A program made the position numbers and the translations under genes. The notes under the pieces are model-generated. The model worked only from the letters and a program-made list of their open reading frames with translations, was not told where the DNA came from and made no database searches. From Verrucomicrobiia bacterium (GTDB taxonomy: Bacteria; Verrucomicrobiota; Verrucomicrobiia; Limisphaerales; UBA11358): 64,000 nt of DNA. Of this stretch, positions 1,515 to 35,696 are shown one piece after another (within the stretch, counting starts at the first letter, position 1; every line of letters starts with the position of its first letter). The stretch is from positions 33,345 to 97,344 of the forward strand of contig DASZXH010000053.1 in NCBI GenBank assembly GCA_035545995.1. The letters are read 5' to 3'.

Positions 1515-1520
1515 AATCTT

Positions 1521-1541
1521 AATTGCAAATCATTTGCAATT
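1521..1541. promoter_or_regulatory. perfect 10-1-10 palindrome AATTGCAAAT-C-ATTTGCAATT (Fur/Zur-family-like operator)
   Basis: Perfect inverted repeat 7 nt upstream of the ZIP start codon (1514). AT-rich with a 7-1-7 core TGCAAAT-N-ATTTGCA, as in Fur-family operators. Confidence 0.55.
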
Positions 1542-1591
1542 TAGGGAAATCAAAAAGCGACCGCAAGATTTATTTTTGGATTAAATCGTGA

Positions 1592-4663: not shown

Positions 4664-4772
4664 GACAATTCTCGAAAAATGGAACAGACACGCTACGCGA
4701 GGAAACGCGCAGCGTCAAAGCGAATCACTCAAGGCTGGCTTCTTTTTGCGCTTCCGGTATTTTGCGCGGATA

Positions 4773-5591
4773 ATGGACATCGCACCCGCATCGCTCGGCC
4801 TCATCGCCGGCAACCGCTCGCTGCCGCTGGAATTCTCCAGATTGGCGCGCGCCGCCGGTGTGAAAAAACTGGTCGCCGTTGCGTTTGAAAACGAGACGGA
4901 ACCGGAATTGGCCAAGCTCGTGGACGAAATTGTCTGGCTCAAGGTCGGCCAGCTTTCCAAAATGATTGCCGCCTTCACCGAACGCGGTATCACGCAATGC
5001 GTCATGGTCGGTCAGATTGCGCCGAAAAATCTTTTCGATTTGCGGCCTGATTTGCGCGCGATGGGCGTGTTGTTCCGGCTCAAGGAAAAAAACGCGCACA
5101 CGATTTTTGGCGCGATTGCCGATGAATTGAAAAAGGACGGCGTGGAATTGATTGACGCGACGCCGTGGCTGAAACCGTTGATGCCCAGACACGATTTTCA
5201 GCTTGGCCCGAAATTATCCGACGAACAAAAAGCCGATGTGGAATTTGGATTTAGAATTGCCAAGGAAATTTCGCGTCTGGAAATCGGACAATTGGTCGTC
5301 GTGAAAAATGGCGTGGTGCTGGCCGTCGAAGGATTTGAGGGTACGGACAAATGTCTCACGCGCGGTGGCGAACTGGCCGGCAAAAATGGCGGCGCGGTGG
5401 CCGTGAAAGTCGCCAAGGAAAAACACGATTTGCGGTTTGACATTCCGTCGCTGGGCGCAAAAACGATTGAAACCTGCGCGGTATCCGGCATTTCCGTTCT
5501 GGCGATTGAGGCGGGCAAAACACTTTTGCTTGAACGCGAGGCTTGCGAAACGCTGGCAAAAAAAAATAAAATTTCTGTCGTCACAATTTAA
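4773..5591 (+). CDS. lpxI: UDP-2,3-diacylglucosamine pyrophosphatase LpxI (DUF1009 family)
   Basis: Start trimmed to the ATG at 4773, because the upstream part of the tracked ORF is antisense to secA. Motifs LGLIAGNRSLP, EIGQLVVVKNGVVLAVEGFEGTD, DLRFDIPSLG and VLAIEAGKTLLL match the LpxI pattern. Confidence 0.85.
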   Translation: MDIAPASLGLIAGNRSLPLEFSRLARAAGVKKLVAVAFENETEPELAKLVDEIVWLKVGQLSKMIAAFTERGITQCVMVGQIAPKNLFDLRPDLRAMGVLFRLKEKNAHTIFGAIADELKKDGVELIDATPWLKPLMPRHDFQLGPKLSDEQKADVEFGFRIAKEISRLEIGQLVVVKNGVVLAVEGFEGTDKCLTRGGELAGKNGGAVAVKVAKEKHDLRFDIPSLGAKTIETCAVSGISVLAIEAGKTLLLEREACETLAKKNKISVVTI

Positions 5592-5593
5592 CC

Positions 5594-6100
5594 ATGCTCA
5601 CATCACACGAATTGTTTGGCTTCATGTCGCCGGATTTGGCGAACGAAATCATTGTCTTTGTCCATGACACGGACAAGCAGACGTATCGCGCCACGCTGGA
5701 TGCCGTGGCCAAGGCGCGCCATGTCCGCACCGTTTTTATGGAACGCCAGCCCAAGCCGCAGCGTTACGCGGCCATCATTTCCACGTTGTCCAAGCCGGGA
5801 TTGGAGCAAGTCGCGGGCGGATTGCTCCGCGTGTGGCTCGTGAAAAAGCACCGGGCGATGCTCGCGGATTTCGTGACGGCGCTAGGCATCGAAAACGAGG
5901 ACGGCGTCGTGGAAGATTTGCCGGCGACGATGGACGATGCGAAATTGAAATCGGCGGTGGAAAGTCTTTTGACCAAATATCCGCCGGAAACGGTGGCGGT
6001 TTATCTGAACGCATTCAACGAAATGAACGAAGCCAATTGGCCAAATCTTAAAAACATATTAGAATCTGAACTGCGCCTGCAACTCGGCGCGCACGCTTAA
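5594..6100 (+). CDS. hypothetical protein
   Basis: 168-aa ORF tightly packed between lpxI (2-nt gap) and gnd (4-nt gap). Codon usage resembles its neighbours. No motif recognised. Confidence 0.6.
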   Translation: MLTSHELFGFMSPDLANEIIVFVHDTDKQTYRATLDAVAKARHVRTVFMERQPKPQRYAAIISTLSKPGLEQVAGGLLRVWLVKKHRAMLADFVTALGIENEDGVVEDLPATMDDAKLKSAVESLLTKYPPETVAVYLNAFNEMNEANWPNLKNILESELRLQLGAHA

Positions 6101-6104
6101 TTTT

Positions 6105-7571
6105 ATGGACGCTCAAGCTGACATCGCACTTATCGGTCTGGCCGTGATGGGCCAGAATCTCATTTTGAACATGAACGACCACAATTTCACCGTCGTGGCG
6201 TTCAATCGCACCGTCGCCAAAGTGGACGAATTTCTCGCCAACGAAGCGAAAGGCACAAAAGTTATTGGCGCACATTCGCTGGAAGAAATGGTCGCTAAAT
6301 TGAAAAAGCCGCGGCGCGTGATGCTTATGGTCAAAGCGGGCGCGCCAGTGGACGAATTCATCGAACATCTGCTGCCGTTGCTGGAGCCGGGCGACATCAT
6401 CATTGACGGCGGCAATTCGCTGTTTGAAGACACGAATCGCCGTGTAAAATACGTTGAATCGAAAGGATTGCTTTACATCGGCACGGGAGTTTCCGGCGGT
6501 GAAGAAGGCGCGCGGCACGGCCCGTCCATCATGCCCGGCGGTTCGCCCGTCGCGTGGCCGCATGTCAAAAATATTTTCCAGAGCATCGCCGCGAAAGTGG
6601 ACGGCGCGCCGTGCTGCGATTGGGTCGGCGAAGGCGGCGCGGGGCATTACGTCAAAATGGTTCACAACGGCATCGAATACGGCGACATGCAGTTGATTGG
6701 CGAGGCTTACAACATTCTGAAAAACGGCCTGGGCATGAGCGACGATGAGATGCACCAAGTTTTTGCCGAGTGGAACACGGGCGAATTGGATTCCTATTTG
6801 ATTGAAATCACGCGCGACATTCTCGCTTACAAAGACACGGACGGCACGCCGCTCGTGGACAAGATTCTCGACACCGCCGGTCAAAAAGGCACGGGCAAAT
6901 GGACGGTGCAAAACAGCGTGGATTTGGGAATACCGATTACGTTGATTGCCGAGGCGGTTTATGCCCGCTGCGTTTCCGCGCTGAAAGACGAACGCGTGAA
7001 GGCGTCGCGCAAATTGAAAGGACTGAAACCGTTGTTGTCCGTCGCCAAAAATCCCGCGAAGAAAAAGCAATTCATTAACGACGTGCGCGACGCGCTTTAC
7101 GCCTCAAAAATCATTTCCTACGCGCAGGGTTACATGCTCATGCGCACGGCGGCGAAGGATTACGGCTGGAATTTGAATTACGGCGGCATCGCGCTCATGT
7201 GGCGCGGCGGCTGCATCATCCGCTCGCGTTTCCTCGGCAAAATCAAAGAGGCTTACGACAATAATCCGAAGCTGCTGAATCTGTTGCTTGACGATTATTT
7301 TCGCGGCGAAATCAAACGCTGCCAAAAAGGCTGGCGTAATGTCATTTCTGCGGTGGCGAAAAAAGGAATTCCCGTTCCCGCGTTCAGCACCGCGCTCGCA
7401 TTTTACGACCAGTATCGCAGCGCCGTTTTGCCCGCGAATTTGTTGCAGGCGCAACGCGATTATTTTGGCGCGCACACTTACGAACGCGTGGACAAACCGC
7501 GCGGTGAATTTTTCCACACGAACTGGACAGGCAAGGGCGGAACGACTTCTTCCAGCACATACAATGTATAA
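6105..7571 (+). CDS. gnd: 6-phosphogluconate dehydrogenase, decarboxylating
   Basis: 488 aa. Motifs [13 protein letters not shown] (NADP fold), [53 protein letters not shown]. Confidence 0.97.
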
Positions 7572-7642
7572 AAATTAGGCAGCTCGTTCAGTTCGTCGCA
7601 AAAACAATTTGCATTTTTATGCGGGTGGCTTTAATTGGCGGC

Positions 7643-9949
7643 ATGAAATTCAATCTCAGAATTTTGCCGGTTGCTGTTTCATTGTCATTTTTAACTTTTA
7701 TGTTTTCAACCGCGCGCGCCGCCGATGTCGGCACCGGCGATTATTTCAAAGGGCCGATTGGCATCCAGCTTTACAGTTTGCGCGCGCAACTGGCGACGAA
7801 TGTGCCAGGCACGCTCGACGAAGTGAAACGCTGGGGCGTCGTGAATGTCGAACTTGCGGGCACTTACAATTTGACGCCGCAGCAATTCAAGGAACAACTC
7901 GACGCGCGCGGCTTGAATGCCGTCAGCGGCCATTTTCCTTACGAACGTTTGCGTGACGACGCGGAAGGCGTAGCGCGCGACGCGCAAATTCTCGGACTCA
8001 AATACGTCGGCTGCGCGTGGATTCCGCATGACGACAACAAACCGTTCGATGAAAAAACCATGCGTGGGGCGATTGCTGTCTTCAATCAGGCGGGCAAGGC
8101 GCTGGCCAAACACGGCCTGAAATTTTTCTACCACGTTCACGGCTACGAATTTCAACCCTATCAGGACGGCACACTGCTGGATTTGTTGATGCGCGAGACG
8201 AATCCGAAATACGTGAATTTCCAAATGGACGTTTTTTGGATTGTGCATCCGGGGCAAAATCCGGTCGCGCTGCTCGAAAAATATCCCAAGCGCTGGCAGT
8301 TGATGCACTTGAAAGGAATGCGCGACAGCACGCCTACGGGTTTGCTCACCGGCCACACGGACGTGACGAACGACGTGGCGCTCGGCACGGGCAAAATTGA
8401 TTACGCACCGATTTTACGCGAGGCGAGAAAAGTCGGCGTGAAATGGTATTTCATCGAGGACGAATCGCCGTCGTCCGAGCAGCAGATTCCGAAGAGTTTG
8501 GGCTATCTCGAAAATGTGAAATGGGGAAAGCTGGGAATTTTTTCGCGTCAAAGCGATGTCGGCGATGTCGCGCAGGAAGGTTCGGCGGAATACAATCATG
8601 AAACCGGCGAATACACCGTTGCGGGCAGTGGCGCGAACATTTGGTCCACCAACGATGCGTTTCATTTCGTCTGGAAAAAATTGTCGGGCGATTTCACGCT
8701 GACGGCCAATATCAAATTTCTTGGCACTGGCGGCAATCCGCATCGCAAGGCGTGCCTGATGGTTCGACAATCGCTTGATACAGATTCCGTTTATGGCGAC
8801 GTCGCGTTTCACGGCAACGGATTGGCGGCGTTGCAATATCGCGAAACGCCGGGCGACACGACGCATGAAATTCAATCGAACATTTCCGCGCCCGCGCGCG
8901 TGCGTCTGGAAAAACGCGGCGATTTTATTTCGATTTGGGTCGAATCCGCCGGTGGAAATTTGAAATTGAACGGCGGTTATCAGCGCGTTCCCATCAAGGG
9001 AGAATTTTACATCGGTCTCGGCGTTTGCGCGCACGACAACAATACGATTGAGCGCGCGGTGTTTTCCAACGTTCAACTTAAGCCCATCTCGACGCCCGCC
9101 AACGCGCAGCCTGCGCTGGAAAGCACGCTGGAAACGATTGCGATAGATTCCACCGACCGCAGCGTGGTTTATCACACGAGCGACCACATCGAAGCGCCGA
9201 ATTGGTCGCGCGACGGAAGTTATTTTATTTTTAACAGCGGCGGGCGAATTTACAAATTGTCCACCAATGGCGTCGCGCCGGAGCTGATTGACACCGGCAA
9301 ACAAATCCATTGCAACAATGACCACGGACTTTCGCCGGACGGTTCATTTCTGGCCATCAGCGACCAGAGCGACCCTGACGGCAAGTCGCGCATTTGCATT
9401 TTGCCCGTCACCGGCGGCGCGCCGCGGCAGGTTACGCTGGACGGGCCGTCTTATTGGCACGGCTGGTCGCCCGACGGCAGAACGCTCGCGTATTGTGCCG
9501 AGCGCAACGGCCAATTCGATATTTACACCATTCCCGTGGACAATATCCACGAAACGCGCCTGACCAGCGCGCTCGGTTTGGCCGACGGCCCGGATTATTC
9601 GCCCGACGGTCAATACATTTACTTCAATTCTGAACGCAACGGCTCGATGCAAATCTGGCGCATGAAACCGGACGGTTCGGAACCGGAGCAAATCACTTCT
9701 GACGATTACAACAATTGGTTCGCGCATCCGTCGCCCGACGGCAAATGGATTGTCTTTCTCACTTACGGTAAATCCGTGGTCGGCCATCCGGCGAATCAAG
9801 ACGTGATGTTGCGTTTGATGAATTTGTCCGACAAAAAAATCCGCGTGCTCGCGAAATTATTCGGCGGGCAGGGGACTATCAATGTTCCATCATGGTCGCC
9901 CGACAGCAAAAATGTGGCGTTCGTCAGTTATCAATTGGTTTATCCGTGA
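7643..9949 (+). CDS. secreted three-domain fusion: xylose-isomerase-like TIM barrel + beta-sandwich + TolB-like PD40 beta-propeller
   Basis: Signal peptide [26 protein letters not shown]. The N-terminal ~280 aa resemble sugar-phosphate isomerase/epimerase TIM barrels. The middle part is a lectin/glucanase-like sandwich. The C-terminus has repeated PD40 motifs ([57 protein letters not shown]). Confidence 0.8.
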
Positions 9950-9999
9950 GCGGAAAACGGAATTGAAGCCATCCAGTTCTTCGCGTAGCCTCAATCGCC

Positions 10000-10626
10000 A
10001 TGCGAAAATATCTCGTTGAATTCATCGGCATGTTTTTATTCGTGCTCACGGTGGGCATGGTGGTCATCAATCCCGGCATCGGCAGTCTCGCGCCATTGGC
10101 CATCGGCTCGGTGCTGATGATTTTAGTCTATGCAGGCGGTCACGTTTCGGGCGGCCATTACAATCCGGCGGTGACGCTGGCTGTGTGGTTGCGCGGACGT
10201 TGCGCAACGGCGGATGTCGTGCCTTATTGGATTGCGCAAATTGCCGGCGCATTTGCCGCGTCGGGCGTCGTCCTGTATCTCAAGGGCAATCCCACTGTGA
10301 CGCCGCAGGAAGTAGAAATCATTCCCGCGCTCATCGCCGAATTCATCGGCACATTTGCGCTCTGTTACGTCGTGTTGAACACCGCCACCGCCAAAGGCAC
10401 GGCGGGCAATTCCTTTTACGGCCTCGCCATCGGCTTCACCGTCGTCGTGATGGCGTTTGCACTCGGCGGCATTTCCGGCGGCGCGTTCAATCCCGCCATC
10501 GCCACCGGCATCACGCTCATGCACCTGGAAAAAGCGGCGAACTTCTGGATTTATCCCGTCGCCAACCTTGCCGCCGCCGCGCTCGCCGCGTTCACGTTCA
10601 AATTCATCAATCCCGAGGACAAATAA
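10000..10626 (+). CDS. MIP-family channel (aquaporin/glycerol facilitator-like)
   Basis: 208 aa, six TM helices, two NPA boxes (HYNPAVT and AFNPAIA). Confidence 0.92.
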   Translation: MRKYLVEFIGMFLFVLTVGMVVINPGIGSLAPLAIGSVLMILVYAGGHVSGGHYNPAVTLAVWLRGRCATADVVPYWIAQIAGAFAASGVVLYLKGNPTVTPQEVEIIPALIAEFIGTFALCYVVLNTATAKGTAGNSFYGLAIGFTVVVMAFALGGISGGAFNPAIATGITLMHLEKAANFWIYPVANLAAAALAAFTFKFINPEDK

Positions 10627-10635
10627 TTTTCGCTT

Positions 10636-10944
10636 TTGCATAAAATGCCGCCGACTTTTCTCAAAGAAACTTCCGGCGGCATTTTGCTTTCGATGAAATT
10701 GCAACCGCGCGCGTCGAAAAATGAAATCGGCGAACCGCTTGGCGACGAATTGAAAGTCAAAGTCACTGCCCCGCCCGTGGATTCCGCCGCGAATGAAGCG
10801 TTGATTAAATTACTCGCGGAGAAATTGCAGTGCGCGCACGGACGAATTGAAATTATTCGCGGCCAAACTTCGCGTCACAAAACGATCTTGTTGCACGGAT
10901 TCAAAATGGCCGACGCAATTCAAGCCATTTCACCGCAATCGTAA
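10636..10944 (+). CDS. DUF167 (YggU-like) protein
   Basis: GGILLSMKLQPRASKNEI...LKVKVTAPPVDSAANEALIKLL...IEIIRGQTSRHKTILL follows the YggU pattern. The start is uncertain (ATG at 10636 or 10645). Confidence 0.8.
   Translation: MHKMPPTFLKETSGGILLSMKLQPRASKNEIGEPLGDELKVKVTAPPVDSAANEALIKLLAEKLQCAHGRIEIIRGQTSRHKTILLHGFKMADAIQAISPQS
10642..10690 (+). terminator. intrinsic-terminator-like hairpin after the aquaporin gene, overlapping the next start codon
   Basis: Perfect 12-bp stem AAAATGCCGCCG (10642-10653) / CGGCGGCATTTT (10674-10685) with a 20-nt loop, followed by TTTTGCTTT. It lies 16 nt after the aquaporin stop. Confidence 0.5.
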
Positions 10945-11010
10945 ATCGCCAGTCAAAAATCGTAAATTCTTTGTCACCTCTTCGGACTTTTCAACCACTG
11001 ATGCGACGTT

Positions 11011-12630
11011 ATGATAACATCCATGATTTCAGTGGCGGCGCAAAACGATTCCGAACTGGTCGGCGAAACCCTTTCCGGCAATCGCGACGCTTTCGGCCAG
11101 ATTGTTTCGCGCTATCAATCGTTAATTTGTTCGCTCGCATACAGCGCGACCGGCAGCCTCGGCCAAAGCGAAGACTTGGCGCAGGAAACCTTCATCGTCG
11201 CGTGGAAACGGTTGAGCCATCTGCGCGAACGCGACAAACTCCGCGCGTGGCTTTGCGGCATCGCGCGCAATCGCATCAATAATTTTCTCCGACGCGAAGG
11301 CCGCGAACCCAATCATCGCGCGGAACCGATTGAAGAAATTGCCGAATCCCATTCGCCCGAACCGTTGCCCATTGAACACACCATCACGAAGGAAGAAGAA
11401 CAAATTCTCTGGCGCTCGCTCGAACGGATTCCCGAAATTTATCGCGAGCCGCTCGTTTTATTTTATCGCGAACATCAATCCATTGAAACCGTCGCGGCGA
11501 ACTTGGATTTGACCGAGGACGCCGTGAAACAACGATTGTCGCGCGGACGAAAATTATTGCAGGAACAAGTTTTGGCATTTGTCGAAGGCACATTGTCGCG
11601 GACAAATCCCGGAAAAACATTCACGCTCGCGGTTTTGGCTTCGCTGCCTTTGCTGACCATCTCAGCAAAAGCGGCAACCATTGGCTCTGCTGCCGCCAAA
11701 GGCGGCGCAAGCGTCAAAGCCGCCGGAGTTGCGGGTTTGCTCGGCGTGATTTTCAGTCCGCTACTGATTCTTTTTGGAAATTATCTTCCCTATCGCATCG
11801 GCCTGGCCGAGGCGCGCTCGGACGAAGAACGCGGCCACGTCAAATTATTTTTCCGAAAAGTCTGGGCGATGACTTTTGGAATGTTCGTTTTATTTGCCGG
11901 AGTTTTTTTATGGCTCGGCAGAAATCATTTCCACGGCGGCGACCTGTTTGGCGTTTTATTTGTCGGCCTCGTTTTGATTTATCTTTTCAACATTTTTGTC
12001 TTTGTCGCCGCCACCAGACATCACCACCGCGCTTATTATTCAAAAATTCTGGCGCAGGAACATGGTGGCGTCTTTCCGAAACCGGCCTGGGAATATCGTA
12101 GCGAAACAAAATTTCTCGGCTTGCCGCTCATTCACATTCGCATCGGCGACCGGTTCGACATGTTGCAAAAGCCGGTCAAGGCGTGGATTGCGTTCGGCAA
12201 TCACGCCATCGGCGGACTGATTGCGTTCGGCGGTCTGGCGATTGCGCCGATCAGTATCGGCGGTTTGACCGTCGGCGTATTTAGCCTCGGCGGATTTGTG
12301 TTCGGCGTTTTTCCGCTTGGCGCGTTGGCGCTTGGTATTTGGGCGTTCGGCGGACTGGCCGTCGGCTGGCAGGCGTTCGGCGGCGGGGCGATTGCTTGGA
12401 ACGCGGCGGCGGGAAATTTTGCCCTCGCGCACGATTTCGCCATCGGCAATGTCGCGCACGCGTCTCAAGCGGGAAACGCGATTGCCCACCAATTCATCGA
12501 ATCGAAATGGTTCTTCCGCTGCATCGAATTCATCAGCCGTCATTGGTTCTGGGTGAATTTTCTTTGGATTACTCCGTTGCTGATTCAGTGGTGGCTCGTC
12601 TCGCGAAAATCGGCAACCGACAAAAAATGA
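11011..12630 (+). CDS. ECF-type sigma-70 factor fused to a ~350-aa polytopic membrane domain
   Basis: The first ~190 aa carry region 2 (AFGQIVSRYQSLI...DLAQETFIVAWKRL) and region 4 (PEIYREPLVLFYREHQSIETVAANLDLTEDAVKQRLSRGRKLL). The remainder has multiple TM helices and Gly-rich pentad repeats. Confidence 0.85.
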   Translation: MITSMISVAAQNDSELVGETLSGNRDAFGQIVSRYQSLICSLAYSATGSLGQSEDLAQETFIVAWKRLSHLRERDKLRAWLCGIARNRINNFLRREGREPNHRAEPIEEIAESHSPEPLPIEHTITKEEEQILWRSLERIPEIYREPLVLFYREHQSIETVAANLDLTEDAVKQRLSRGRKLLQEQVLAFVEGTLSRTNPGKTFTLAVLASLPLLTISAKAATIGSAAAKGGASVKAAGVAGLLGVIFSPLLILFGNYLPYRIGLAEARSDEERGHVKLFFRKVWAMTFGMFVLFAGVFLWLGRNHFHGGDLFGVLFVGLVLIYLFNIFVFVAATRHHHRAYYSKILAQEHGGVFPKPAWEYRSETKFLGLPLIHIRIGDRFDMLQKPVKAWIAFGNHAIGGLIAFGGLAIAPISIGGLTVGVFSLGGFVFGVFPLGALALGIWAFGGLAVGWQAFGGGAIAWNAAAGNFALAHDFAIGNVAHASQAGNAIAHQFIESKWFFRCIEFISRHWFWVNFLWITPLLIQWWLVSRKSATDKK

Positions 12631-24087: not shown

Positions 24088-24163
24088 CTATTTCAATTTC
24101 GTCCGCATGTAATGGAAAAGATATTGCTGGGCGTAACTGGCGTGCGGGCCAAAATGTGGCGGC
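24088..24163 (-). pseudogene. orphan duplicate of the last ~22 codons plus stop of the ogg-like gene
   Basis: 24097-24163 aligns with 24453-24521 (3 substitutions and a 2-nt indel). It translates to HFGPHASYAQQYLFHYMRTKLK*, versus HFGPHAGYAQQYLFHYMRTKIH* in the intact gene. Confidence 0.75.
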
Positions 24164-24204
24164 GCGGTGGCTTGATTGGGTTTTGATCTGCCCCAATGGG
24201 GCAA

Positions 24205-24385
24205 AATCATTCAGCCCGGCGTTGGCCGATGAAATCGGGCTACGCCGGGTAGCTTCACGAACGGAGAACAACTCTGAAAGAGTTGCATCAAGGGAGGGAT
24301 TTGATTCAACTCTTTTAGAGTTGAGAATATTGTTTGGATGTCAACCCGGCGTAGCCGCTGCGCGTCAACGCCGGGCTGAATGATT
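24205..24385. repeat. 181-bp palindromic (inverted-duplication) element
   Basis: Perfect 20-bp outer arms AATCATTCAGCCCGGCGTTG / CAACGCCGGGCTGAATGATT. Inner matching blocks GGCTACGCCGGGT / ACCCGGCGTAGCC. Twin hairpins CAACTCTGAAAGAGTTG and CAACTCTTTTAGAGTTG. Confidence 0.85.
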
Positions 24386-24443
24386 GAATCCCGTTAGGAT
24401 TCCATTGCAAAATTCTTTGCGTCTTTGCCTCATTGCCCGACAT

Positions 24444-25424
24444 TTAATGTATTTTCGTCCGCATGTAATGAAAAAGATATTGCTGCGCGTAACCGGCGTG
24501 CGGGCCAAAATGCGTGGCGGCAAACTGTTTCAACCGTTTATCTGAAATGCGCCGTCGCGGAAAATAAAGTTGTCGCAACGCGCGTTCCACCCAAACGTCC
24601 ACGGGAAACGCGGAATCGAAGCCGTAGGCGAACAACAAAACGCAATCGGCGATTTTGTGGCCGACGCCGCGCAGTTTCATCAATTCGTGTTGCGCTTCGG
24701 CGTAATCCAATTTGCGGATTTTTTCCAAATCGAATTTGCCGTCAGTGATTTGGCACGCGGCGGCGAGCAAATGCGGCGCGCGAAATCCCATTTTGCACGC
24801 GCGCAATTCGTTTTCGGACAAGGCGGCAATTTTTTGCGGAGACGGAAATGAGAAAAATAAATCGCTCCTCACCCCGGCCCTCTCCTCGTTTGGCGAGGAG
24901 AGGGAGAAATTGCAAGCACGTGTTGCAGGATTGAACGGCGTGGCGGTTTTTCCTTCTCCCCGCTTAAACGGGGAGAAAGTGGCCGAAGGCCGGATGAGGG
25001 GTTCTCCAAATCGCTCGCAGAGCAGGGCGATGATTTGCCGGATTTGGACGATTTGTTTCGTCGAGGACAAAATGAACGAGGCGAGACATTCCCACGGTTC
25101 TTGCCGCAGGATTCGTAAGCCGCGACAGGCGGCGACGGCGCGATTCATCGGCTCATCGTCGGGAAATGTTTTGAGAATTGTTTCCAATTCGATTTCCGTT
25201 TGCAGAAATGCGCGCAGCCAATCCCAATTTTTTTGCGGCGCGACAGTTTCGGCGCAAATGCCCCTTTCAATTTGCGTCAGACGCACATAATTCATTCCAA
25301 TGACACCCACCCAAGAAATTGGGCTGTCAGGACTCCTGACCCAGCGGAATACCTGACCGGAATCGAGCGTCGCGGCCAAATCATAATCGCGCGCAGGCAG
25401 AAAAATTTTAGACACGAATTTCAC
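24444..25424 (-). CDS. ogg: 8-oxoguanine DNA glycosylase (OGG1-type, HhH-GPD superfamily) with a 45-codon in-frame insert
   Basis: N-terminal TLDSGQVFRW, HhH-GPD block LMKLRGVGHKIADCVLLFAYGFDSAFPVDVWV. GTG start at 25424. Confidence 0.85.
   Translation of the reverse strand: MKFVSKIFLPARDYDLAATLDSGQVFRWVRSPDSPISWVGVIGMNYVRLTQIERGICAETVAPQKNWDWLRAFLQTEIELETILKTFPDDEPMNRAVAACRGLRILRQEPWECLASFILSSTKQIVQIRQIIALLCERFGEPLIRPSATFSPFKRGEGKTATPFNPATRACNFSLSSPNEERAGVRSDLFFSFPSPQKIAALSENELRACKMGFRAPHLLAAACQITDGKFDLEKIRKLDYAEAQHELMKLRGVGHKIADCVLLFAYGFDSAFPVDVWVERALRQLYFPRRRISDKRLKQFAATHFGPHAGYAQQYLFHYMRTKIH
24867..25001. mobile_element. 135-bp MITE/REP-like composite element inserted in frame in ogg
   Basis: Terminal inverted repeats CCTCACCCCGGCC / GGCCGGATGAGGGG. 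Internal hairpins CCCTCTCCTCG-TTTGG-CGAGGAGAGGG (24878-24904) and TTCTCCCCG-CTTAAA-CGGGGAGAA (24954-24977). Length is 45 codons. Confidence 0.7.
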
Positions 25425-29355: not shown

Positions 29356-30057
29356 TCACCGGCGATTGTCGCGGGCCAAGGTGATGTAATAAAGCAATTG
29401 CAGGATTGAAGTGACCAGCGCAGCCACGTAAGTGAGCGCGGCGGCATCCAGCACCTTTGCCACACCCGCGCGTTCATGCTCGTGAACGAGTCCCAGACGA
29501 AACAATTGTTCCTTTGCGCGACGGCTGGCATCGTATTCGACGGGCAGGGTGACCAGTTGGAACAGCGTGATGACGGAAAAGGTGGCGACGATAATCCACA
29601 AGGCAATCGGCAAAAAGTGCATGAACATTCCCAAAAGCAAAATGCCCATGTAAGCCATGCTGGCGAAATTTGTCACCGGCACGAGCGCCATGCGGAAATT
29701 GAACAGGGCATACGCGGCTTGATGTTGCAGCGCGTGGCCGGATTCATGCGCCGCCACGCCGACCGCCGCAACGGTGCGACCATGAAAATTGTCGGAAGAC
29801 AAAAACAGCGCGCGTTTGGTGGGGTCATAATGGTCAGTCAAACTGCCGGGAACTTCTTCGACCGGCATATCGTTGAGACCGGCGGAGTCGAGAATCCGGC
29901 GAGCCGCCTGCGCGCCGGTCATATTTGAATCCACCGGTATTTTACTGTATTTGGCGTAAGTGTGGTGCAATTTGATTTGCGCCCAGATGCCAAGCAGCAG
30001 GCCGGGAATCAAAAACAGCCAATACAAACCGATAGATTGGAACGAATTGTAAATCAT
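29356..30057 (-). CDS. membrane zinc metallopeptidase (YugP-like, Zn_peptidase_2 family)
   Basis: 233 aa. HESGHALQH zinc motif, with N- and C-terminal TM helices. Confidence 0.85.
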   Translation of the reverse strand: MIYNSFQSIGLYWLFLIPGLLLGIWAQIKLHHTYAKYSKIPVDSNMTGAQAARRILDSAGLNDMPVEEVPGSLTDHYDPTKRALFLSSDNFHGRTVAAVGVAAHESGHALQHQAAYALFNFRMALVPVTNFASMAYMGILLLGMFMHFLPIALWIIVATFSVITLFQLVTLPVEYDASRRAKEQLFRLGLVHEHERAGVAKVLDAAALTYVAALVTSILQLLYYITLARDNRR

Positions 30058-30231
30058 AATTCAAAACAATGGACAGCGCATTTGCTGTTTCATTCAATCA
30101 AGCTGCGTTTGTGCCAATTCAAATCTCCTTTAATTTAATCGTTTTCGCCCGCGATGAAAGAATTTTCTGCGCCAGCGCGGCGCAAGTGAGACAATGAAAA
30201 TTGGCACAGACAATTGTCACGGAGTGACGAT

Positions 30232-30261
30232 TGAAAATAGCCCGCGTTAAAACGGCGGGCT
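30232..30261 (-). terminator. intrinsic terminator (usable in both directions)
   Basis: AGCCCGC-GTTAAAACG-GCGGGCT hairpin (30239-30261), flanked by GAAAAT upstream and GTTATCTTTT downstream. Confidence 0.5.
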
Positions 30262-30319
30262 GTTATCTTTTGGGATTATGTCTTTGACCAACGAACCGCG
30301 AAATAACGAGGATGTTTTC

Positions 30320-30348
30320 TCCCTCTCCCCGTTTGGCGGGGAGAGGGA
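30320..30348. repeat. REP-like hairpin TCCCTCTCCCCG-TTTGG-CGGGGAGAGGGA
   Basis: Perfect 12-bp stem. It belongs to the same sequence family as the two hairpins inside ogg and the decayed copy at the murG 3' end. Confidence 0.8.
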
Positions 30349-30382
30349 ATTAAAATTGTTTGTGAACGGGATAATTCCCATC

Positions 30383-30427
30383 TCATATTTCCAAAACCTT
30401 CTCAAACCGTGTCAGATTTTTCGCGCC
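30383..30427 (-). pseudogene. orphan duplicate of the last 14 codons plus stop of the M24 peptidase gene
   Basis: It translates to GAKNLTRFEKVLEI*, identical to the end of the 33859..34983 gene. The two copies differ at 5 nt, all synonymous. It overlaps the stop codon of the 997-aa ORF by 1 nt. Confidence 0.8.
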
Positions 30428-33420
30428 TACTGGCCGCAGATGTTGGTGGCGACGACCATGGAGAAATAATCCACATCACCCCAATCCTGAATCACCACGC
30501 CAATGTCGTTGGTGCCGTAATGTAGCAGATTCGGCGCGACGTCGTTAAACGCTTTGAAGGATGACCAAACCGCATACATGTTATTGTTGTTTCTTGTGTC
30601 AATATAGACGCCATTGACATACAACCAGTAGACGTTGTCTATGGCGATGGCGTATTGCACCTGCGACAGGACGGCGTTGGTGGGAATATACAGGGCGATG
30701 TGATTTGTCCACGTTGAATCCACGGCATTCGTCGTGGGCGGCCAATAGGTGTTCGGCAACGGATCAAGATTGGGGTATTGATTCGTGCCATAGCTGGAAA
30801 ACGGCGCTTGCAGGTTGCCCAGATGCACCGGATGGTTGGTGTCGGATATATCCGTCACGTCCCAGACGGCGTTCGCCGGTATCAAATCGTTGGGATTTTG
30901 ACCGGACACGGCAATCTCGTTGGAGACGGGCGATTCATGGGTAATGCCGGTGGCATAATCGTAGGATTCAAACGTCACGATGTAATAGTTGGTCTGGCCG
31001 ACGGGAGCGTTGGTGTCCAGATAATTCATCTGGCCGGGGCTGTTGGTGGCGATGGCCGTGTAAGGGCCGCCGGAAACGGCGGAGCGGTAGACGATGAAAT
31101 CCTCAAGGTTGAGATTTTCCTGCTGGTCGTTGGCGTCCAGCGCCCAATCCAGTTGTGACACGATGCTGAAGGGATTGCAGTCTGGAAATAAAACCGGCCC
31201 GTCAACGAATTGCAGGGTGACGGTGCTCGTGGCCGCGTCGCCGCAATCATCACCGACATCAGCGACGATGTAATTGAAAGTGTCCGTGCCGGAGAAATTG
31301 GCGCCGGCGGGAAGGTAAATATAATTCGGGTCGGTGGACAACCCCGACACATTAGTCACCGTGCCATGCGCGGGCTGGAAGAGCGGGGCATAATAGGCTT
31401 CGCCGCAGCCATAATCCCCGCCGGACAGGGTGAAGCTGGCCGGGTTCGTGCCAAAGACCAGCGCCGTAACGGGATTGGCATAGAGTTGGTTGGCAATGGT
31501 TAACGTGACGGTGGCCGGAGTGGAAGTATATTGACCGTCGCTGGCCGTGAAGGTGAAACTATCCTGACCTTCATAACAGGAATTTGGAACGTAAGTGACA
31601 TTGGTCACCTCGCTGCCATAATTTTCATTGGTTACATAAGTTAATGTACCATGTGCGGGATAAGTCAAAATGGAAAAAGTCAATGGCAAGCCACTCTGTG
31701 CAAATGCGGTCAAAGTAATATTATTTGTTGAGTTCGGACATGGAGCTTCGTTATCGCCAAAAGCTATCGGATACACTTGGGGATTGGCGATGAGGTTGTT
31801 GGTGGCTGAATAATATGCCGGGTCAAGCAGGTAATTCGTGTTTTGCAGCAGCGTCAAAATGACAGTCTGGTTGGGTTTCAAGCCGTCGGCAATCGGGTTA
31901 ATATCAACCTCCGCATAACTTTGATTGGGAGAAATAGTGACCATGCCCGTAAGGTTGGAGTAATCAATGCCATTTTGCGCCGTGCCGCCGATGGAATAAT
32001 AAACGGTGACATCATTGGTATGCCGGCCTTGGTCAGCGATATAAAAGCCGCCGGAGTATCCCGGATCGTTGTTGGCGGGATTTGGCTCCTTTGAATCCCC
32101 AATGTCCACAATCACCATGACGGGATTGGCGTGATGCACGCGAAAGAAGGTTGTCGCATTGGTTATCGGCACGGGCGTAAAATCCATATAACTCCCGTAG
32201 GCGCTCGGCAAGATTTGCCCCAAGTCCCAATTGGTGTTCGACAAATTGGTGGTGGAAAGCAGTTGGTAGTTGTCGCCGCTTGCGGGGTTGTGCAACCGCA
32301 AGCCAAGATTGGGAGCTTCATTGCTGGCCTCCAACCATAAACCGTTAGGGTCAATCATCATCGGGGTAAAGCCATTGGGCTGATACTCTTCATTGGCGGG
32401 ATAGAGCATCTGCTGGATGAGCACGGCCATCGTTGCGGCTTGAGTTTGGGCGATGGCAGTCGCCTGCGCGGTGCTCATCCGTCCGGCGGATGCAGGCGCG
32501 AGTTGGCCGCCGGTGTCATCTACAATGAACTCGTTGTTGGTCACCGCATAAATCGGCAGGTCTGACAAACTGGACGGCAGGAAGGGAAAAGGCAGTGCCA
32601 TGAGGTTGTCGTCGGGACTGTTGGTCATTATCCAGAATGTTCCACTGTCAGGCAGGGACGCAGACGATACCGGAGTCAGTCCAGCTTCGTCGGCGGTAGC
32701 TTGCACAACGGAATCCGGTGTGGCATGAACAGATAGAACGGAAGCGGCAAATAATAATGGAACAATCAGCTTGCAACGACGCTTGAAGATATAAACTAAA
32801 AAGCAACTTACTCCAATTAAGGCTAAAGTGGAAGGCTCTGGCACAGAGACAATACCTTCTCGAAACCAGAAGTCTATAGTAGCCCCAGGTAGGCCATTAG
32901 AAAACAGTTGTCCATTGGAATAAGCGTCGTCAGTAAGAACTATTATATCCCACGGATCATCACCGGACAAAACGACTGGTTGCAGGTAATAAGTTTGGCC
33001 GGGAGTCAGGGTGATGGGAGTTGAAAAGAAGAAATTAGTGATGCCAGCAATGCCCAGACCACTATTTACAAATCCGTTGGGCATGAAAACAGGAGCGGTT
33101 GAACCGAGCAAGGTTGCGCCGAAACGAGGGTCTGGCGAACCTGTCCACAGTTCCACAGAAACCGTCGCGCCATTATTGCCATTGTTTGGAATGTCCCAAA
33201 ATTCAAGCGAGACAAATCCAATCGCCGAAAGTGAGGGAATAAAAGATTGCACCAATGGCGAATCTTCTTGGATGTTAAGGCCGTCCGCATTTCCATTGCC
33301 GATAACAGCTACTGGAGCGGTGGCCGACTGCTGGTCATAAACCAGCCCTTGCGCGTGAGCTTGGAGTGAAGCGGTGATAAGCATTACCGCACTGAATAAA
33401 CTGCCAATTATTCTTTTCAT
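30427..33420 (-). CDS. large secreted adhesin-like protein: N-terminal PEP-CTERM module fused to a Calx-beta / Ig-like / FN3 / lectin-like multidomain protein
   Basis: 997 aa. Signal peptide MKRIIGSLFSAVMLITASLQAHA. Internal VPEPSTLALIGVSCFLVYIFKRRCK (aa 193-217). Calx-beta-like VYYSIGGTAQNGIDYSNLTGMVTISPNQSYAEVDINPIADG. Ig-like DSFTFTASDGQYTSTPATVTLTI. FN3-like YRSAVSGGPYTAIA...NYYIVTF. AT-richer than its flanks. Confidence 0.8.
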   Translation of the reverse strand: MKRIIGSLFSAVMLITASLQAHAQGLVYDQQSATAPVAVIGNGNADGLNIQEDSPLVQSFIPSLSAIGFVSLEFWDIPNNGNNGATVSVELWTGSPDPRFGATLLGSTAPVFMPNGFVNSGLGIAGITNFFFSTPITLTPGQTYYLQPVVLSGDDPWDIIVLTDDAYSNGQLFSNGLPGATIDFWFREGIVSVPEPSTLALIGVSCFLVYIFKRRCKLIVPLLFAASVLSVHATPDSVVQATADEAGLTPVSSASLPDSGTFWIMTNSPDDNLMALPFPFLPSSLSDLPIYAVTNNEFIVDDTGGQLAPASAGRMSTAQATAIAQTQAATMAVLIQQMLYPANEEYQPNGFTPMMIDPNGLWLEASNEAPNLGLRLHNPASGDNYQLLSTTNLSNTNWDLGQILPSAYGSYMDFTPVPITNATTFFRVHHANPVMVIVDIGDSKEPNPANNDPGYSGGFYIADQGRHTNDVTVYYSIGGTAQNGIDYSNLTGMVTISPNQSYAEVDINPIADGLKPNQTVILTLLQNTNYLLDPAYYSATNNLIANPQVYPIAFGDNEAPCPNSTNNITLTAFAQSGLPLTFSILTYPAHGTLTYVTNENYGSEVTNVTYVPNSCYEGQDSFTFTASDGQYTSTPATVTLTIANQLYANPVTALVFGTNPASFTLSGGDYGCGEAYYAPLFQPAHGTVTNVSGLSTDPNYIYLPAGANFSGTDTFNYIVADVGDDCGDAATSTVTLQFVDGPVLFPDCNPFSIVSQLDWALDANDQQENLNLEDFIVYRSAVSGGPYTAIATNSPGQMNYLDTNAPVGQTNYYIVTFESYDYATGITHESPVSNEIAVSGQNPNDLIPANAVWDVTDISDTNHPVHLGNLQAPFSSYGTNQYPNLDPLPNTYWPPTTNAVDSTWTNHIALYIPTNAVLSQVQYAIAIDNVYWLYVNGVYIDTRNNNNMYAVWSSFKAFNDVAPNLLHYGTNDIGVVIQDWGDVDYFSMVVATNICGQ

Positions 33421-33503
33421 AAGCCCCTCATCCTGTTTCTGCTGATTTACTGGATTATTCTAAATCCAATACCGGGGCAACGCAAGATGTATCTTAAGTT
33501 TTT

Positions 33504-33522
33504 AACGATATAACGTATCGTT
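33504..33522. promoter_or_regulatory. 7-5-7 inverted repeat AACGATA-TAACG-TATCGTT (candidate XRE operator)
   Basis: Perfect palindrome in the divergent 135-bp region between the 997-aa ORF and the XRE gene, 34 nt upstream of the XRE start. Confidence 0.45.
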
Positions 33523-33555
33523 CATGTTTTTGGGTAAAAAGCGATGTAATATGCC

Positions 33556-33786
33556 GTGGCTATTTCCAAAAAAGAATGGAAACGGATCGAGATTTTCGGC
33601 GCAAATGTCCGCCGTGAACGGGTGCGCAAAGGCTTGACGCAAGATGGATTGGCTGAAAGAGCCGAAATTGCCACGCGCAACCTCCAAAAAATTGAAGCAG
33701 GAGAAATAAATATTCTTGTCACGACCGCTTTCAGGATTCGATTGGCATTGCGATGTCCGTGGAAACGTTTAATGCCTCCTGAATGA
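33556..33786 (+). CDS. XRE-family helix-turn-helix transcriptional regulator
   Basis: 76 aa, GTG start. FGANVRRERVRKGLTQDGLAERAEIATRNLQKIEAGEINILVTT is a canonical Cro/C1-type HTH. Confidence 0.8.
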   Translation: MAISKKEWKRIEIFGANVRRERVRKGLTQDGLAERAEIATRNLQKIEAGEINILVTTAFRIRLALRCPWKRLMPPE

Positions 33787-33858
33787 CACTTGACCATTCC
33801 AGCTATAGTTCATTCGTGTCGAACATGGGAGTGGAGTTTGGTTGGAATGGCGGTCAGT

Positions 33859-34983
33859 TCAAATTTCCAAAACTTTCTCAAAGCGCGTCAGATTTTTTGC
33901 GCCGCTGGCAGTGACGAGCGCGACATCTTCCAAGCGCACGCCGCCGATTTCGGGATAATAAAGTCCCGGCTCGACGGTGACGACATGGCCGGTTTTCAAT
34001 TCGCCGGTCGAAGTCGCGCCCACGCGCGGCGCTTCATGGATTTCCAGTCCGAGTCCGTGGCCGGTGCCGTGAAAAAATCCTTCCATGCGCCCGTTGCACT
34101 TGCCGGTTTTGTAGCCGTGCTTCACAAAATAATCCTGAACGGCTTTGTGAACTTCCGCCGTTTTCACTTTGGCGCGGATTTTTTCAAACGCGATTTTTTG
34201 TCCCTGCCAGACAGTGTCATAAAGTTTTCGCGCCGCTTCGCTCGCGCGCCCGCGAACGACCGTGCGCGTGATGTCGCCGAAATAGCCGGTCTTTTGTGAG
34301 CGCGGGAAAATATCGAGGATAATCAGCTCATTGGCGCGCAACGGGCCGTAACCGCGTTCGTGCGGGTCGCAGGCTTGTTTGCCGCCGGCGACAATGGTGT
34401 TCGCCGCCAATCCGCTCGCCTGCAAAATCGCGCAGTCAATAATCGCGCGCAACCGTTCGGAAGTCAGTGGTGCACTGCGATAAATCAATTGCCGGCGTTT
34501 GCCGATTTTTGAAAGTTGCAGCGCGCGAATGCCTTCGGCCATGCCGACTTCCGCCATCGTCAGCGCGGCGGAAATTTTTTTCACTTCATCCGCGTTTTTG
34601 AATTCGCGTTTCGGGAAAAAATTCGACTGCGGTTTCAATTTGACGCCCAGCTTTTTCAATTCCCGCGCGAGGCCGAGCGGAAAATTGTCGGGAACGAGAA
34701 CGCGCTGGGATTTTTTCTCTCGCAAAATCTCGCGGATGATTTTGGCGAAGCTGATTTTTTTGACGCCGTCAGCGCGTAATTTTCTTTGATGTGCGCTCAA
34801 TGAGGCGACGCGGCAATGCGGCGCTTGCCGTCGTGCGCGGTCAATTTCCAAATCGCTCATCACGAGCAGCGGGCGTCCGCCGAAATTCAGGTAAATAAAC
34901 GGGTCGGGCACGAACAGGCCGGTGGCGTAAAGCATGTTCGCGTCGCGTTCGCTGTCGGCGACAATGAGCAATGTTTCGGGCAT
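33859..34983 (-). CDS. pepP: M24-family Xaa-Pro aminopeptidase
   Basis: 374 aa. Metal ligands in DIFPRSQKTGYFGDITRT, FHGTGHGLGLEIHE, VVTVEPGLY, GGVRLED. Confidence 0.9.
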   Translation of the reverse strand: MPETLLIVADSERDANMLYATGLFVPDPFIYLNFGGRPLLVMSDLEIDRARRQAPHCRVASLSAHQRKLRADGVKKISFAKIIREILREKKSQRVLVPDNFPLGLARELKKLGVKLKPQSNFFPKREFKNADEVKKISAALTMAEVGMAEGIRALQLSKIGKRRQLIYRSAPLTSERLRAIIDCAILQASGLAANTIVAGGKQACDPHERGYGPLRANELIILDIFPRSQKTGYFGDITRTVVRGRASEAARKLYDTVWQGQKIAFEKIRAKVKTAEVHKAVQDYFVKHGYKTGKCNGRMEGFFHGTGHGLGLEIHEAPRVGATSTGELKTGHVVTVEPGLYYPEIGGVRLEDVALVTASGAKNLTRFEKVLEI

Positions 34984-34988
34984 TTTTT

Positions 34989-35066
34989 CCGCAGATTGCG
35001 CCGATTGGCGCCGATTTATTTTTCCAAAATCAATTTTAAGTCCGCGTTAATCTGTGAAATCTGCGG
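34989..35066. repeat. 78-bp element bounded by 9-bp inverted repeats in the upp-pepP spacer
   Basis: CCGCAGATT (34989-34997) / AATCTGCGG (35058-35066). Internal short tandem duplications GATTGCGCC GATTGGCGCC and AATCTGTGA AATCTGCGG, then CAAGTTCAAGTT. Confidence 0.65.
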
Positions 35067-35072
35067 ACAAGT

Positions 35073-35696
35073 TCAAGTTCCAAAAAGCCGGTCGCCCGCG
35101 TCGCCGAGACCGGGCACGATGTAGCCGCGCTCGTTCAATTTCTTGTCCACGGCGGCGGTGTAAATGGGCACGCGCGGATAACTTTTTTGCACAGTGTGGA
35201 TGCCTTCGGGCGCGGCGACCAGATTCACGAGGCGGATGTGTTTCGCGCCTTGTTCGACTAGCAAATCAATCGCGGCGACGGCGCTGCCGCCAGTCGCGAG
35301 CATCGGGTCAATCAAAACGACTTCAAAGCTTTCGAGATTTTTCGGCAGGCTTTTGTGATAAAACATCGCGCGCAACGTGGTTTCCTCGCGTTTCAATCCG
35401 ATGAGGCCGACGCGCGCGTGCGGAATTAATTGCAAAATGGAGTCGAGCATTCCCAATCCGGCGCGTAAAACGGGAACGAGCACGACTTCGCGCTCGAGTT
35501 GAAATCCGTTCGCCACGGCCAGCGGCGTTTCCACGGAAATTTTTTTGACGGAAAAATTGCGCGTGGCCTCGTAAATCATCAGCGAAGCGATTTCGCCAAG
35601 CAAACGGCGGAATTCCTGCGGTTGTGTCCGTTTGTCGCGCAACCGAGTGAGATTGTGCTGCACCAGCGGATGAGCGATGACGGTGACGCTCTTCAT
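35073..35696 (-). CDS. upp: uracil phosphoribosyltransferase
   Basis: 207 aa. LVPVLRAGLGM, PRPP loop VVLIDPMLATGGSA, YIVPGLGDAGDRLFGT. Confidence 0.97.
   Translation of the reverse strand: MKSVTVIAHPLVQHNLTRLRDKRTQPQEFRRLLGEIASLMIYEATRNFSVKKISVETPLAVANGFQLEREVVLVPVLRAGLGMLDSILQLIPHARVGLIGLKREETTLRAMFYHKSLPKNLESFEVVLIDPMLATGGSAVAAIDLLVEQGAKHIRLVNLVAAPEGIHTVQKSYPRVPIYTAAVDKKLNERGYIVPGLGDAGDRLFGT

Follow-up and report, generated by a model that had tools for sequence, protein, structure and literature searches.

A stranded copy of a peptidase gene end and its cargo in an uncultured Limisphaerales bacterium

How can the end of a protein-coding gene come to stand twice, on the two sides of a block of accessory genes, when the block carries no recombinase gene? 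This question is raised by a 64-kb stretch of DNA (called the window below, always at its full length) from one uncultured Verrucomicrobiota bacterium of the order Limisphaerales. The window contains an intact gene for an M24 (Xaa-Pro) peptidase of 374 aa (33859–34983, minus strand; PF00557, E = 6e-45). The protein is 100% identical to an annotated protein of a Verrucomicrobiae metagenome-assembled genome (MAG), and its nearest relatives, at 80–86% amino acid identity, are found in Limisphaerales or Verrucomicrobiia MAGs. The last 14 codons and the stop codon of this gene, here called the working copy (33859–33910, minus strand, including a part of weaker similarity up to ~33910), occur again downstream as an orphan copy (30383–30435, minus strand), which still codes for GAKNLTRFEKVLEI*. 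Between the two copies are a regulator gene of the XRE family and a 997-aa open reading frame (ORF) for an adhesin-like protein.

The duplicated gene end and the ancestral site

The two copies were compared over the 45 bases that end with the stop codon (33859–33903 against 30383–30427), and 40 of the 45 are identical. Each copy encodes GAKNLTRFEKVLEI* and ends exactly at the stop codon. All of the five differences (ATT/ATA, AAA/AAG, CGC/CGG, ACG/ACA, and GCA/GCG) are at third codon positions and synonymous. Weaker similarity, with an indel of 1 nt, extends the copies to ~30435 and ~33910. In addition, 1 nt of the orphan is shared with the TAG that closes the 997-aa ORF. When the last 45 nt of each ORF of at least 120 codons was scanned against the whole window with a cut-off of 33/45, only this pair and a second case (24444–24488 and 24088–24132) were found.

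An assembly artefact, that is, a chimeric join of strains at the repeated segment, is scarcely credible. It is true that the source is a MAG and that the Logan contig breaks inside a repetitive extragenic palindrome (REP)-like hairpin. However, window positions 30324–35529 are 100% identical to L001, an independent Logan assembly from SRR12170508. This base-for-base match means that the structure is not an assembly quirk. Furthermore, the copies differ at five positions and each has coherent flanks, and many unrelated assemblies show this architecture too, among them long-read MAGs whose contigs measure 0.3–4.6 Mb.

The synteny of 80 species-representative genomes was surveyed. The gene order S49, UPRT, M24, Zn-peptidase, orf542, orf740 is conserved among related genomes. 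The window has the UPRTase and S49 peptidase genes upstream of the M24 gene, and the conserved downstream neighbour, a Zn-metallopeptidase gene (PF04298), is at 29356–30057 (minus strand). In many relatives, the site is empty, and the M24 stop codon is only 140–160 nt from the Zn-peptidase start. The window was then aligned with five of these empty-site relatives (L005, L007, L016, L018, and L024; alignment A3). In all five, the motifs TGTGCCAA ... TGGCGCA ... TTGGCAC ... TTGAATGA ... GCTGTCAAT ... ATG are found directly after the M24 stop. The same motifs are in the window at 30058–30208 (minus strand), the conserved native intergenic region, beyond the orphan and a further 174 nt. Thus, the orphan marks the ancestral gene end, and the XRE and adhesin block is an insertion. 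Judged from these alignments, the ancestral order is the peptidase stop, ~150 nt, and the Zn-peptidase gene. The cargo was inserted ~50 nt ahead of the old peptidase stop codon, and the orphan is a displaced gene end on which coding selection acted until recently.

The working end and the orphan end look like two selected alleles and not like a gene end and its decayed local copy, to judge from the kind and the number of their differences. Between species, functional 45-mers are identical at 35.3 of 45 positions on average (95th percentile, 41), and the window pair, with 40/45, is inside this range. Had the orphan decayed neutrally, the chance that all five differences fall at third positions would be roughly 0.004–0.01 by our own estimate.

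Several of these points had been read earlier from the letters of this DNA and its ORFs (the sequence-only reading). The coordinates of the repeat, its five synonymous differences, the identical translation of both copies, the weaker extension, and the 1-nt overlap with the stop of the 997-aa ORF all hold in our alignment. The same reading proposed that the 3′ end of the peptidase gene was the site of an insertion and that the second end originated from a diverged allele. The first proposal agrees with the empty sites of the relatives and with the position of the orphan at the ancestral end; the second is supported by the third-position differences and the between-species range. The REP hairpin that it noted is also real (30321–30347), but the hairpin and a terminator were taken there for the original downstream region of the gene, and neither is found in any of the five aligned relatives. 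Both are within the 174-nt segment between the orphan and the conserved intergenic region (30209–30382), which is absent from those five genomes. The terminator-like hairpin (~30239–30261) was not called by a terminator scan, and the REP-like hairpin has one other copy in the window. The 174-nt segment is a small insertion of its own, just outside the repeats.

Cargo and recurrence of the arrangement

The adhesin-like ORF (30427–33420, minus strand) has a signal peptide, an internal PEP-CTERM-like motif, and a Big_9/Cadherin-like Ig domain. The XRE-family helix-turn-helix (HTH) regulator of 76 aa (33556–33786, plus strand; PF01381, E = 1e-7) is transcribed divergently from the adhesin gene and converges on the peptidase gene. 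The divergent intergenic (promoter) region between the two cargo genes (33421–33555) has no further copy in 1.5 Mb of related DNA except in the same-sample contig L001. Toward the peptidase gene, a spacer of 72 nt (33787–33858) from the peptidase stop to the XRE stop forms the left cargo edge and carries an imperfect inverted repeat (33794–33815 and 33829–33850).

The divergent XRE and adhesin pair is also found at unrelated loci (L082, L083, and L085). The pair forms a conserved two-gene module of Limisphaerales, and the cargo is native to this order. The homologues elsewhere have no flanking gene-end repeats, and the repeats at those loci are fragments of adhesin paralogues. Furthermore, the GC content of the island is 0.506 against 0.527 ± 0.015, with 8% of equal-sized windows equally low, and the GC content at third codon positions of the adhesin gene (0.594) is inside the host range. 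Thus, the cargo comes from the same kind of genome. The sequence-only reading had called the insert visibly AT-richer than its flanks; it is mildly so, but it is not distinct from the backbone. A foreign-composition reading was rejected because the departure in GC is not significant.

Some other features of the adhesin gene were observed. The N-terminus of the 997-aa ORF comprises the signal peptide, a domain of ~190 aa, and the PEP-CTERM-like motif with KRRCK (residues 192–215), and a second signal-peptide-like hydrophobic segment precedes the Big_9 part. The ORF resembles a small PEP-CTERM protein fused in frame to an adhesin (residues ~1–235). Some of its homologues are full-length; in others, the start is close to residue 220, or separate paralogues are found upstream (L085). 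In addition, a piece of 54–67 nt just beyond the XRE gene matches, at 81–93% identity, a stretch inside the neighbouring adhesin gene (L082, 5574–5627 against 7113–7166; L083, 5560–5626 against 7373–7439), which suggests recombination among adhesin paralogues.

An orphan of the M24 end downstream of the intact gene was found at 15 of the 82 genome loci, and also in most metagenome contigs that have a nucleotidyltransferase (NTase) cassette behind the M24 gene (L086–L094). Between working copy and orphan, there are at least six kinds of cargo. In addition to the XRE and adhesin genes of the window, these are a 65-aa gene with a gene for an 890-aa CarboxypepD_reg protein (L015), a gene for a 170-aa weakly AbiEii-like NTase with a 65-aa gene (L086, L059, L067, L079, and L087–L094, with remnants in L052 and L063), a PIN/VapC toxin gene preceded by a small partner ORF (L066 and L047), a hairpin of ~83 nt (L055, L060, L064, and L065), and a 137-aa ORF (L062). 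It was also observed that the NTase gene begins 3–17 nt past the peptidase stop (L086, at 9138; L059, L067, and L079). The N-terminus of the NTase, MKLTSFEKIV, resembles the C-terminus of the peptidase, KNLTRFEKVLEI, and this resemblance may be due to chance or may mark a recombination substrate.

The junctions between cargo and orphan were compared. The adhesin of the window ends in ...YFSMVVATNICGQ (...NICGQ), which is the conserved end of the adhesin family. The cargo gene is thus complete, and its stop codon is where the orphan starts, which leaves no room for an att arm. The orphan was rejected as a part of the adhesin ORF, since this ORF closes with the C-terminus typical of its family and the frame of the orphan is a different one. 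The junction (...TGCGGCCAGTAG|GCGCG) shares a match of 5 nt (GCCAG) with the working copy of the window (...GCCAGCGGCGC) and a match of 8 nt (CGGCCAGT) with L015-like alleles (...ACGGCCAGTGGCGC), which are alleles of other genomes, the window's resident allele being lost. Meanwhile, the 65-aa gene of the NTase cassette has no stop codon of its own, reads into the orphan, and ends at an out-of-frame TGA. The flush adhesin junction and the NTase read-through would be features of illegitimate joins, and not of att sites with arm DNA.

The second case in the window concerns the gene for an OGG1-like 8-oxoguanine glycosylase (OGG; 24444–25424, minus strand; PF07934/PF00730). Its last 22 codons and stop codon (working copy, 24444–24512, minus strand) occur again as an orphan (HFGPHASYAQQYLFHYMRTKLK*; 24088–24156, minus strand). 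The insert between them (24157–24443) is gene-free and folds, as an inverted repeat, into a long hairpin; the fold of 24133–24443 has a minimum free energy of −136 kcal/mol (z = −9.5). The copies are identical at 61 of 69 bases, none of the differences is at a second codon position, and each copy finishes with a stop codon. The orphan ends in TKLK*, the commonest form in relatives, and the working copy in TKIH*. A BLAST search of the hairpin insert against 1.5 Mb of related DNA gave no other copy, and the orphan was not seen in 21 relatives, most of which have only a few hundred nt of downstream sequence. The second REP-like copy of the window (24878–24904) is in frame inside the OGG ORF (CCCTCTCC(C/T)CG...GGGAGAGGG). 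It belongs to an extra segment of ~40 codons, which L016 lacks and L020 shares in part.

In other taxa, the pair of NTase and 65-aa gene is found behind an HTH-WYL-WCX regulator gene and is flanked by an orphan of the 3′ end of that gene. The orphan is ~275 nt long in L135 (locus 2457–6091), ~75 nt in L133 (2458–4354), and ~29 nt in L129 (3390–4234). The allele-like signature is seen with greater power in L135, where there are 30 differences between the copies (6/5/19 by codon position), with 16 silent against 9 replacement codons. Orphans of 29, 75, and 275 nt indicate that the length of the repeat is variable and that the copies behave as diverged alleles. The L135 insert includes the NTase cassette and a further two-gene pair without family match, which we read as a putative toxin-antitoxin module, and a second, diverged NTase pair follows the orphan. 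In addition, a conserved promoter/operator-like motif, CCTG(T/G)TCA(G/C)GTTTTGACAGG with GGTATAA ~10 nt later, was observed ahead of NTase cassettes and neighbouring genes of several unrelated contigs (L133, 3445–3480 and 4320–4354; L120, 3440–3475 and 4524–4559; L106, 351–372 and 1167–1188).

At the peptidase gene, the right edge of the similarity is always the stop codon (within 0–4 nt), and the left edge follows the cargo, at −64/−62, −56, −56, −54, −51, and −48 nt from the stop, with some blurring by decay of the orphans. These edges bear on a true long target-site duplication by a transposition-like process, in which an enzyme of the cassette or of the host would make staggered cuts ~50–65 nt apart and the copies would then diverge. 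The near-identical repeats of L086 (60/63) would fit with it, and 'insertion with long target duplication' is a descriptive class recorded for addiction modules (PMC2853133). However, staggered cuts need not respect a stop codon, and the similarity stops ≤4 nt from it in both window genes and in the relatives. Furthermore, the divergence of the copies in the window and in L135 is allele-like, the repeats span 29 to 275 nt, and the cargo includes no candidate enzyme. Thus, a target-site duplication is very unlikely.

The age of the arrangement can be estimated from the NTase cassette. Over 78 pairs, its divergence follows that of the peptidase gene of the host (Pearson r = 0.86; mean nucleotide identity, 76.3% against 78.2%), and therefore the cassette has resided at the site for a long time. 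The orphan-bearing genomes belong to three clades and are interspersed with empty sites, which fits repeated precise loss by repeat-to-repeat deletion. They include the nearest relatives of the window, L086, L079, and L015, and the AAA-AAT (Lys-Asn) form is common to the window, L086, and L015. Compared with its own working copy, the orphan has an identical run of 28 nt in L079 and is identical at 60 of 63 positions in L086. On the whole, orphans are closer to the working copy of their own host than to that of another host (35.0 against 33.2 of 48 positions, P = 0.003). Since orphans share host- or clade-specific silent variants with the working copy, they have been refreshed by recombination with functional copies or re-created.

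A single ancient duplication of the gene end could also lead to such a pattern. In this reading, the end was duplicated once together with the NTase cassette and was then inherited vertically with gene conversion, and in the window the cassette was replaced in situ by XRE and adhesin without import of a gene end. The correlation between NTase and host divergence, the presence of orphans in three clades including the nearest relatives of the window, and the host-specific synonymous variants shared by orphan and working copy are in its favour. The non-NTase orphans are also shorter at the left, as if nibbled. However, neutral decay is expected after conversion, and five of five synonymous differences would then be improbable (P of about 0.01 by our own estimate). 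In addition, the window island has no trace of an NTase cassette, and the first duplication itself would still need an accretion or an integrative element of the kinds weighed below. We therefore regard a single ancient duplication as unlikely.

Routes by which the cargo may have arrived

XerD, lambda Int, and Hin were used as phmmer queries against every six-frame ORF of the window and of 81 loci, and no recombinase was found at E < 0.01. All cargo genes have non-recombinase identities (PIN/VapC-family, weakly AbiEii-like NTase, CarboxypepD_reg, and XRE with adhesin). Among 82 genome loci and 11 metagenome loci (~1.1 Mb), there was no integrase-bearing element at the peptidase 3′ end. A degenerate pattern of the gene end and the peptidase protein were also searched against the IMG/VR viral contigs, and no phage attP mimic was found. 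In the loci without a downstream Zn-peptidase (78 ORFs compared with Pfam), housekeeping genes are among the top 25 families listed, a result more in keeping with altered synteny than with mobile elements. Of the marks of a self-mobile element, gene-restoring direct repeats and an empty site are present, and an element-encoded recombinase is absent.

Several other classes of systems were rejected. For a diversity-generating retroelement, the insert has no reverse transcriptase gene, and the differences (T/A, A/G, C/G, G/A, and A/G) are silent and not adenine-specific. For an integron with attC sites, there is no integrase, there is no Rfam match anywhere in the window, and the repeats are a coding gene end. 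No tRNA or tmRNA that could serve as a target is present in the window. A simple tandem duplication was rejected because the downstream DNA differs between the copies.

The sequence-only reading had described an insert that holds just the XRE gene and the adhesin-like ORF, that has no recombinase, and that is not the only case of its architecture. The gene content and the phmmer result bear this out, and the architecture recurs at the OGG gene of the window and at the peptidase gene of many relatives. Its comparison of the two ends with attL and attR is unsupported: no recombinase or phage copy was found, the left edge depends on the cargo, the junction is flush, and the composition is not distinct.

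A remnant like a cis-mobilizable element (CIME) is possible but not likely. Here, the island and the gene-free hairpin inserts would be decayed or non-autonomous integrative elements between attL and attR, and a tyrosine recombinase specific for the last 50–64 nt of the peptidase gene would now be lost or act in trans. A frame-preserving direct repeat of a housekeeping gene 3′ end is the classic signature of such elements, and the sizes fit the streptococcal CIMEs and microCIMEs (PMC7563491). The strong site preference, the clustered left edges, and the use of one site by at least six cargo types also agree with this reading. However, an integrase-bearing parent was seen at the site in none of the 82 genome and 11 metagenome loci, the ~1.1 Mb yielded no recombinase, and the gene end was found on no phage or viral contig. 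The edge of the repeat changes with the cargo, and the orphan is flush with the adhesin stop, with no arm-type DNA remaining. Moreover, the NTase cassette co-diverges with its hosts rather than being recently mobile, the same cassette family is flanked elsewhere by 29- to 275-nt repeats, and the OGG case needs a second integrase of different specificity.

It is quite doubtful that an integron-like cassette system docks at the last 50–64 nt of the M24 gene in Limisphaerales, with a recombinase encoded elsewhere that shuttles integrase-less cassettes into this gene end and a parallel system that acts at the OGG gene. The cassettes (toxin-antitoxin-like pairs, XRE and adhesin, and gene-free hairpins) would each bring a replacement end with silent variants.

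The explanation that we favour, and to which we give about an even chance, is recombinase-free accretion at a long-lived hotspot directly behind the Limisphaerales M24 gene. First, DNA of a related strain would come in, with the peptidase gene, XRE, and adhesin in that order. A homologous crossover within the conserved peptidase gene would join the donor DNA to the resident chromosome. On the other side, an illegitimate microhomology join would connect the adhesin stop (...TGCGGCCAGTAG) to the resident sequence ...GCCAG(C/T)GGCGC, ~50 nt before the resident stop. As an outcome, the working gene would have the end of the donor allele, and the resident end would be stranded as the orphan. Later, the short duplicated end would serve as a second homology arm, by which the cassette could spread into empty alleles and cargo could be swapped. 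The duplicated end would also allow precise loss by repeat-to-repeat deletion and occasional conversion of the orphan by the working copy. Such a process would be homology-facilitated illegitimate recombination (HFIR), and in descriptive terms an 'insertion with long target duplication'.

Accretion would explain why the differences are silent only and the similarity ends at the stop codon, why the junction is flush and the repeat varies in length, and why recombinases are absent and the composition is native-like. Furthermore, a sliding-window nearest-neighbour analysis found that nt 841–1068 of the peptidase gene are relatively closer to another clade than they are in six control genomes. This is a weak hint of a mosaic peptidase gene, which would agree with accretion.

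It should be noted that several points weigh against accretion. First, the site preference is strong: 2216 ORF ends (1.13 Mb) were scanned, and orphans were found only at the M24 gene and the window OGG gene, and all other matches came from tandem paralogues or segmental duplications. A site-specific system would give exactly such left edges, which are clustered over 16 nt, and our account of this clustering (no repeats but short ones persist, at a site that is a hotspot) was made post hoc. Since the site preference and the clustered edges are less well explained by accretion, they keep the CIME-like model with a recombinase in trans alive. Second, the co-divergence of the NTase with its hosts means that much of the recurrence is inheritance and not repeated events, and the independent events at the peptidase gene may be about six. 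Third, the microhomology was inferred from the alleles of other genomes, and the resident sequence upstream of the orphan is lost. Fourth, neither an empty site in a genome of the same species nor a donor that has XRE and adhesin behind its peptidase gene was found. An exact search of the JGI metagenomes for the junction of orphan and downstream DNA gave 0 matches, and exact-protein look-ups of the window Zn-peptidase and UPRTase gave no same-species contigs on record. Finally, the genome was searched for recombinases over 64 kb only, and single-sequence queries could miss divergent ones.

A separate observation comes from L019 (~960–12007), where three ORF ends repeat at a spacing of ~2612 nt with 42–44/45 identity, a sign that a segment of ~2.6 kb was recently duplicated in tandem in that genome.

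Significance and comparison with known systems

If the recombinase-free reading is true, the locus would be a clear natural example of accessory genes that are captured, stacked, swapped, and cleanly lost by homologous and illegitimate recombination alone, in the widespread but uncultured soil and peat order Limisphaerales. The short duplicated gene end would then be a portable homology arm. This matter bears on why most hotspots of horizontal transfer carry no recognisable mobile-element genes. If a trans-acting integrase is at work, there would be a new cassette system that targets the ends of protein-coding genes. The signature itself, an orphan gene end with silent differences only that ends at the stop codon, can be scanned for genome-wide, and gene-end orphans are no proof of an integrase-driven island.

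Prophage e14 and phage 21 integrate at the 3′ end of icd in Escherichia coli, with their own integrase and a defined att segment of ~165 bp. The window resembles them in the alternative gene end, the mostly silent differences, and the native end orphaned downstream. However, no integrase was found in the window insert.

In streptococci, CIMEs of 1.2–13 kb with cargo and gene-free microCIMEs of 130–220 bp are found at the 3′ ends of rpmG, rpsI, fda, and rplL (PMC7563491). Similarly, the inserts described here have no recombination or transfer genes, are flanked by repeats of housekeeping 3′ ends, and have occupied and empty alleles. They also exist in kb-scale versions with cargo and in gene-free versions (~100–350 bp). 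However, the streptococcal CIMEs are in tandem with, and derived from, integrative and conjugative or integrative and mobilizable elements that have the matching integrase, and no such parent was found in ~93 loci here. In addition, the repeat edge varies with the cargo here, and one junction is flush with the stop codon of the cargo.

The class of 'insertion with long target duplication' reportedly goes back to Nobusato et al. 2000, alongside Furuta et al. 2010. For restriction-modification systems, this class includes recombinase-free insertions with repeats of 46 bp and longer that overlap gene 3′ ends, and its mechanism is unresolved (PMC2853133). It is defined by an insert of <20 kb, direct repeats of >30 bp, a single copy in an empty-site genome, and no mobility genes (PMC2853133). 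The window island agrees with the class in its size, its repeats, the empty site of its relatives, and the lack of mobility genes, and the cargo of the relatives is often of the addiction type (PIN/VapC-like or AbiEii-like NTase pairs). However, the cargo of the window is a regulator with a surface protein and not a restriction-modification system. The repeats are also allele-like (89% identical, with synonymous differences only) and end at the stop codon, and one gene end is used across the entire order.

HFIR is said to have been studied by de Vries & Wackernagel 2002 and by Prudhomme et al. 2002. It is usually accompanied by a deletion of recipient DNA rather than by a short duplication. 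In transformable bacteria, HFIR is a tested mechanism that combines an anchor of homology on one side with a microhomology join of 3–10 bp (PMC6382021). HFIR is a laboratory phenomenon; in contrast, the present case concerns a natural locus, and its microhomology is inferred. Nevertheless, the two would have in common the anchor in a conserved gene, the microhomology join, the lack of a dedicated recombinase, and incoming DNA that is foreign but related.

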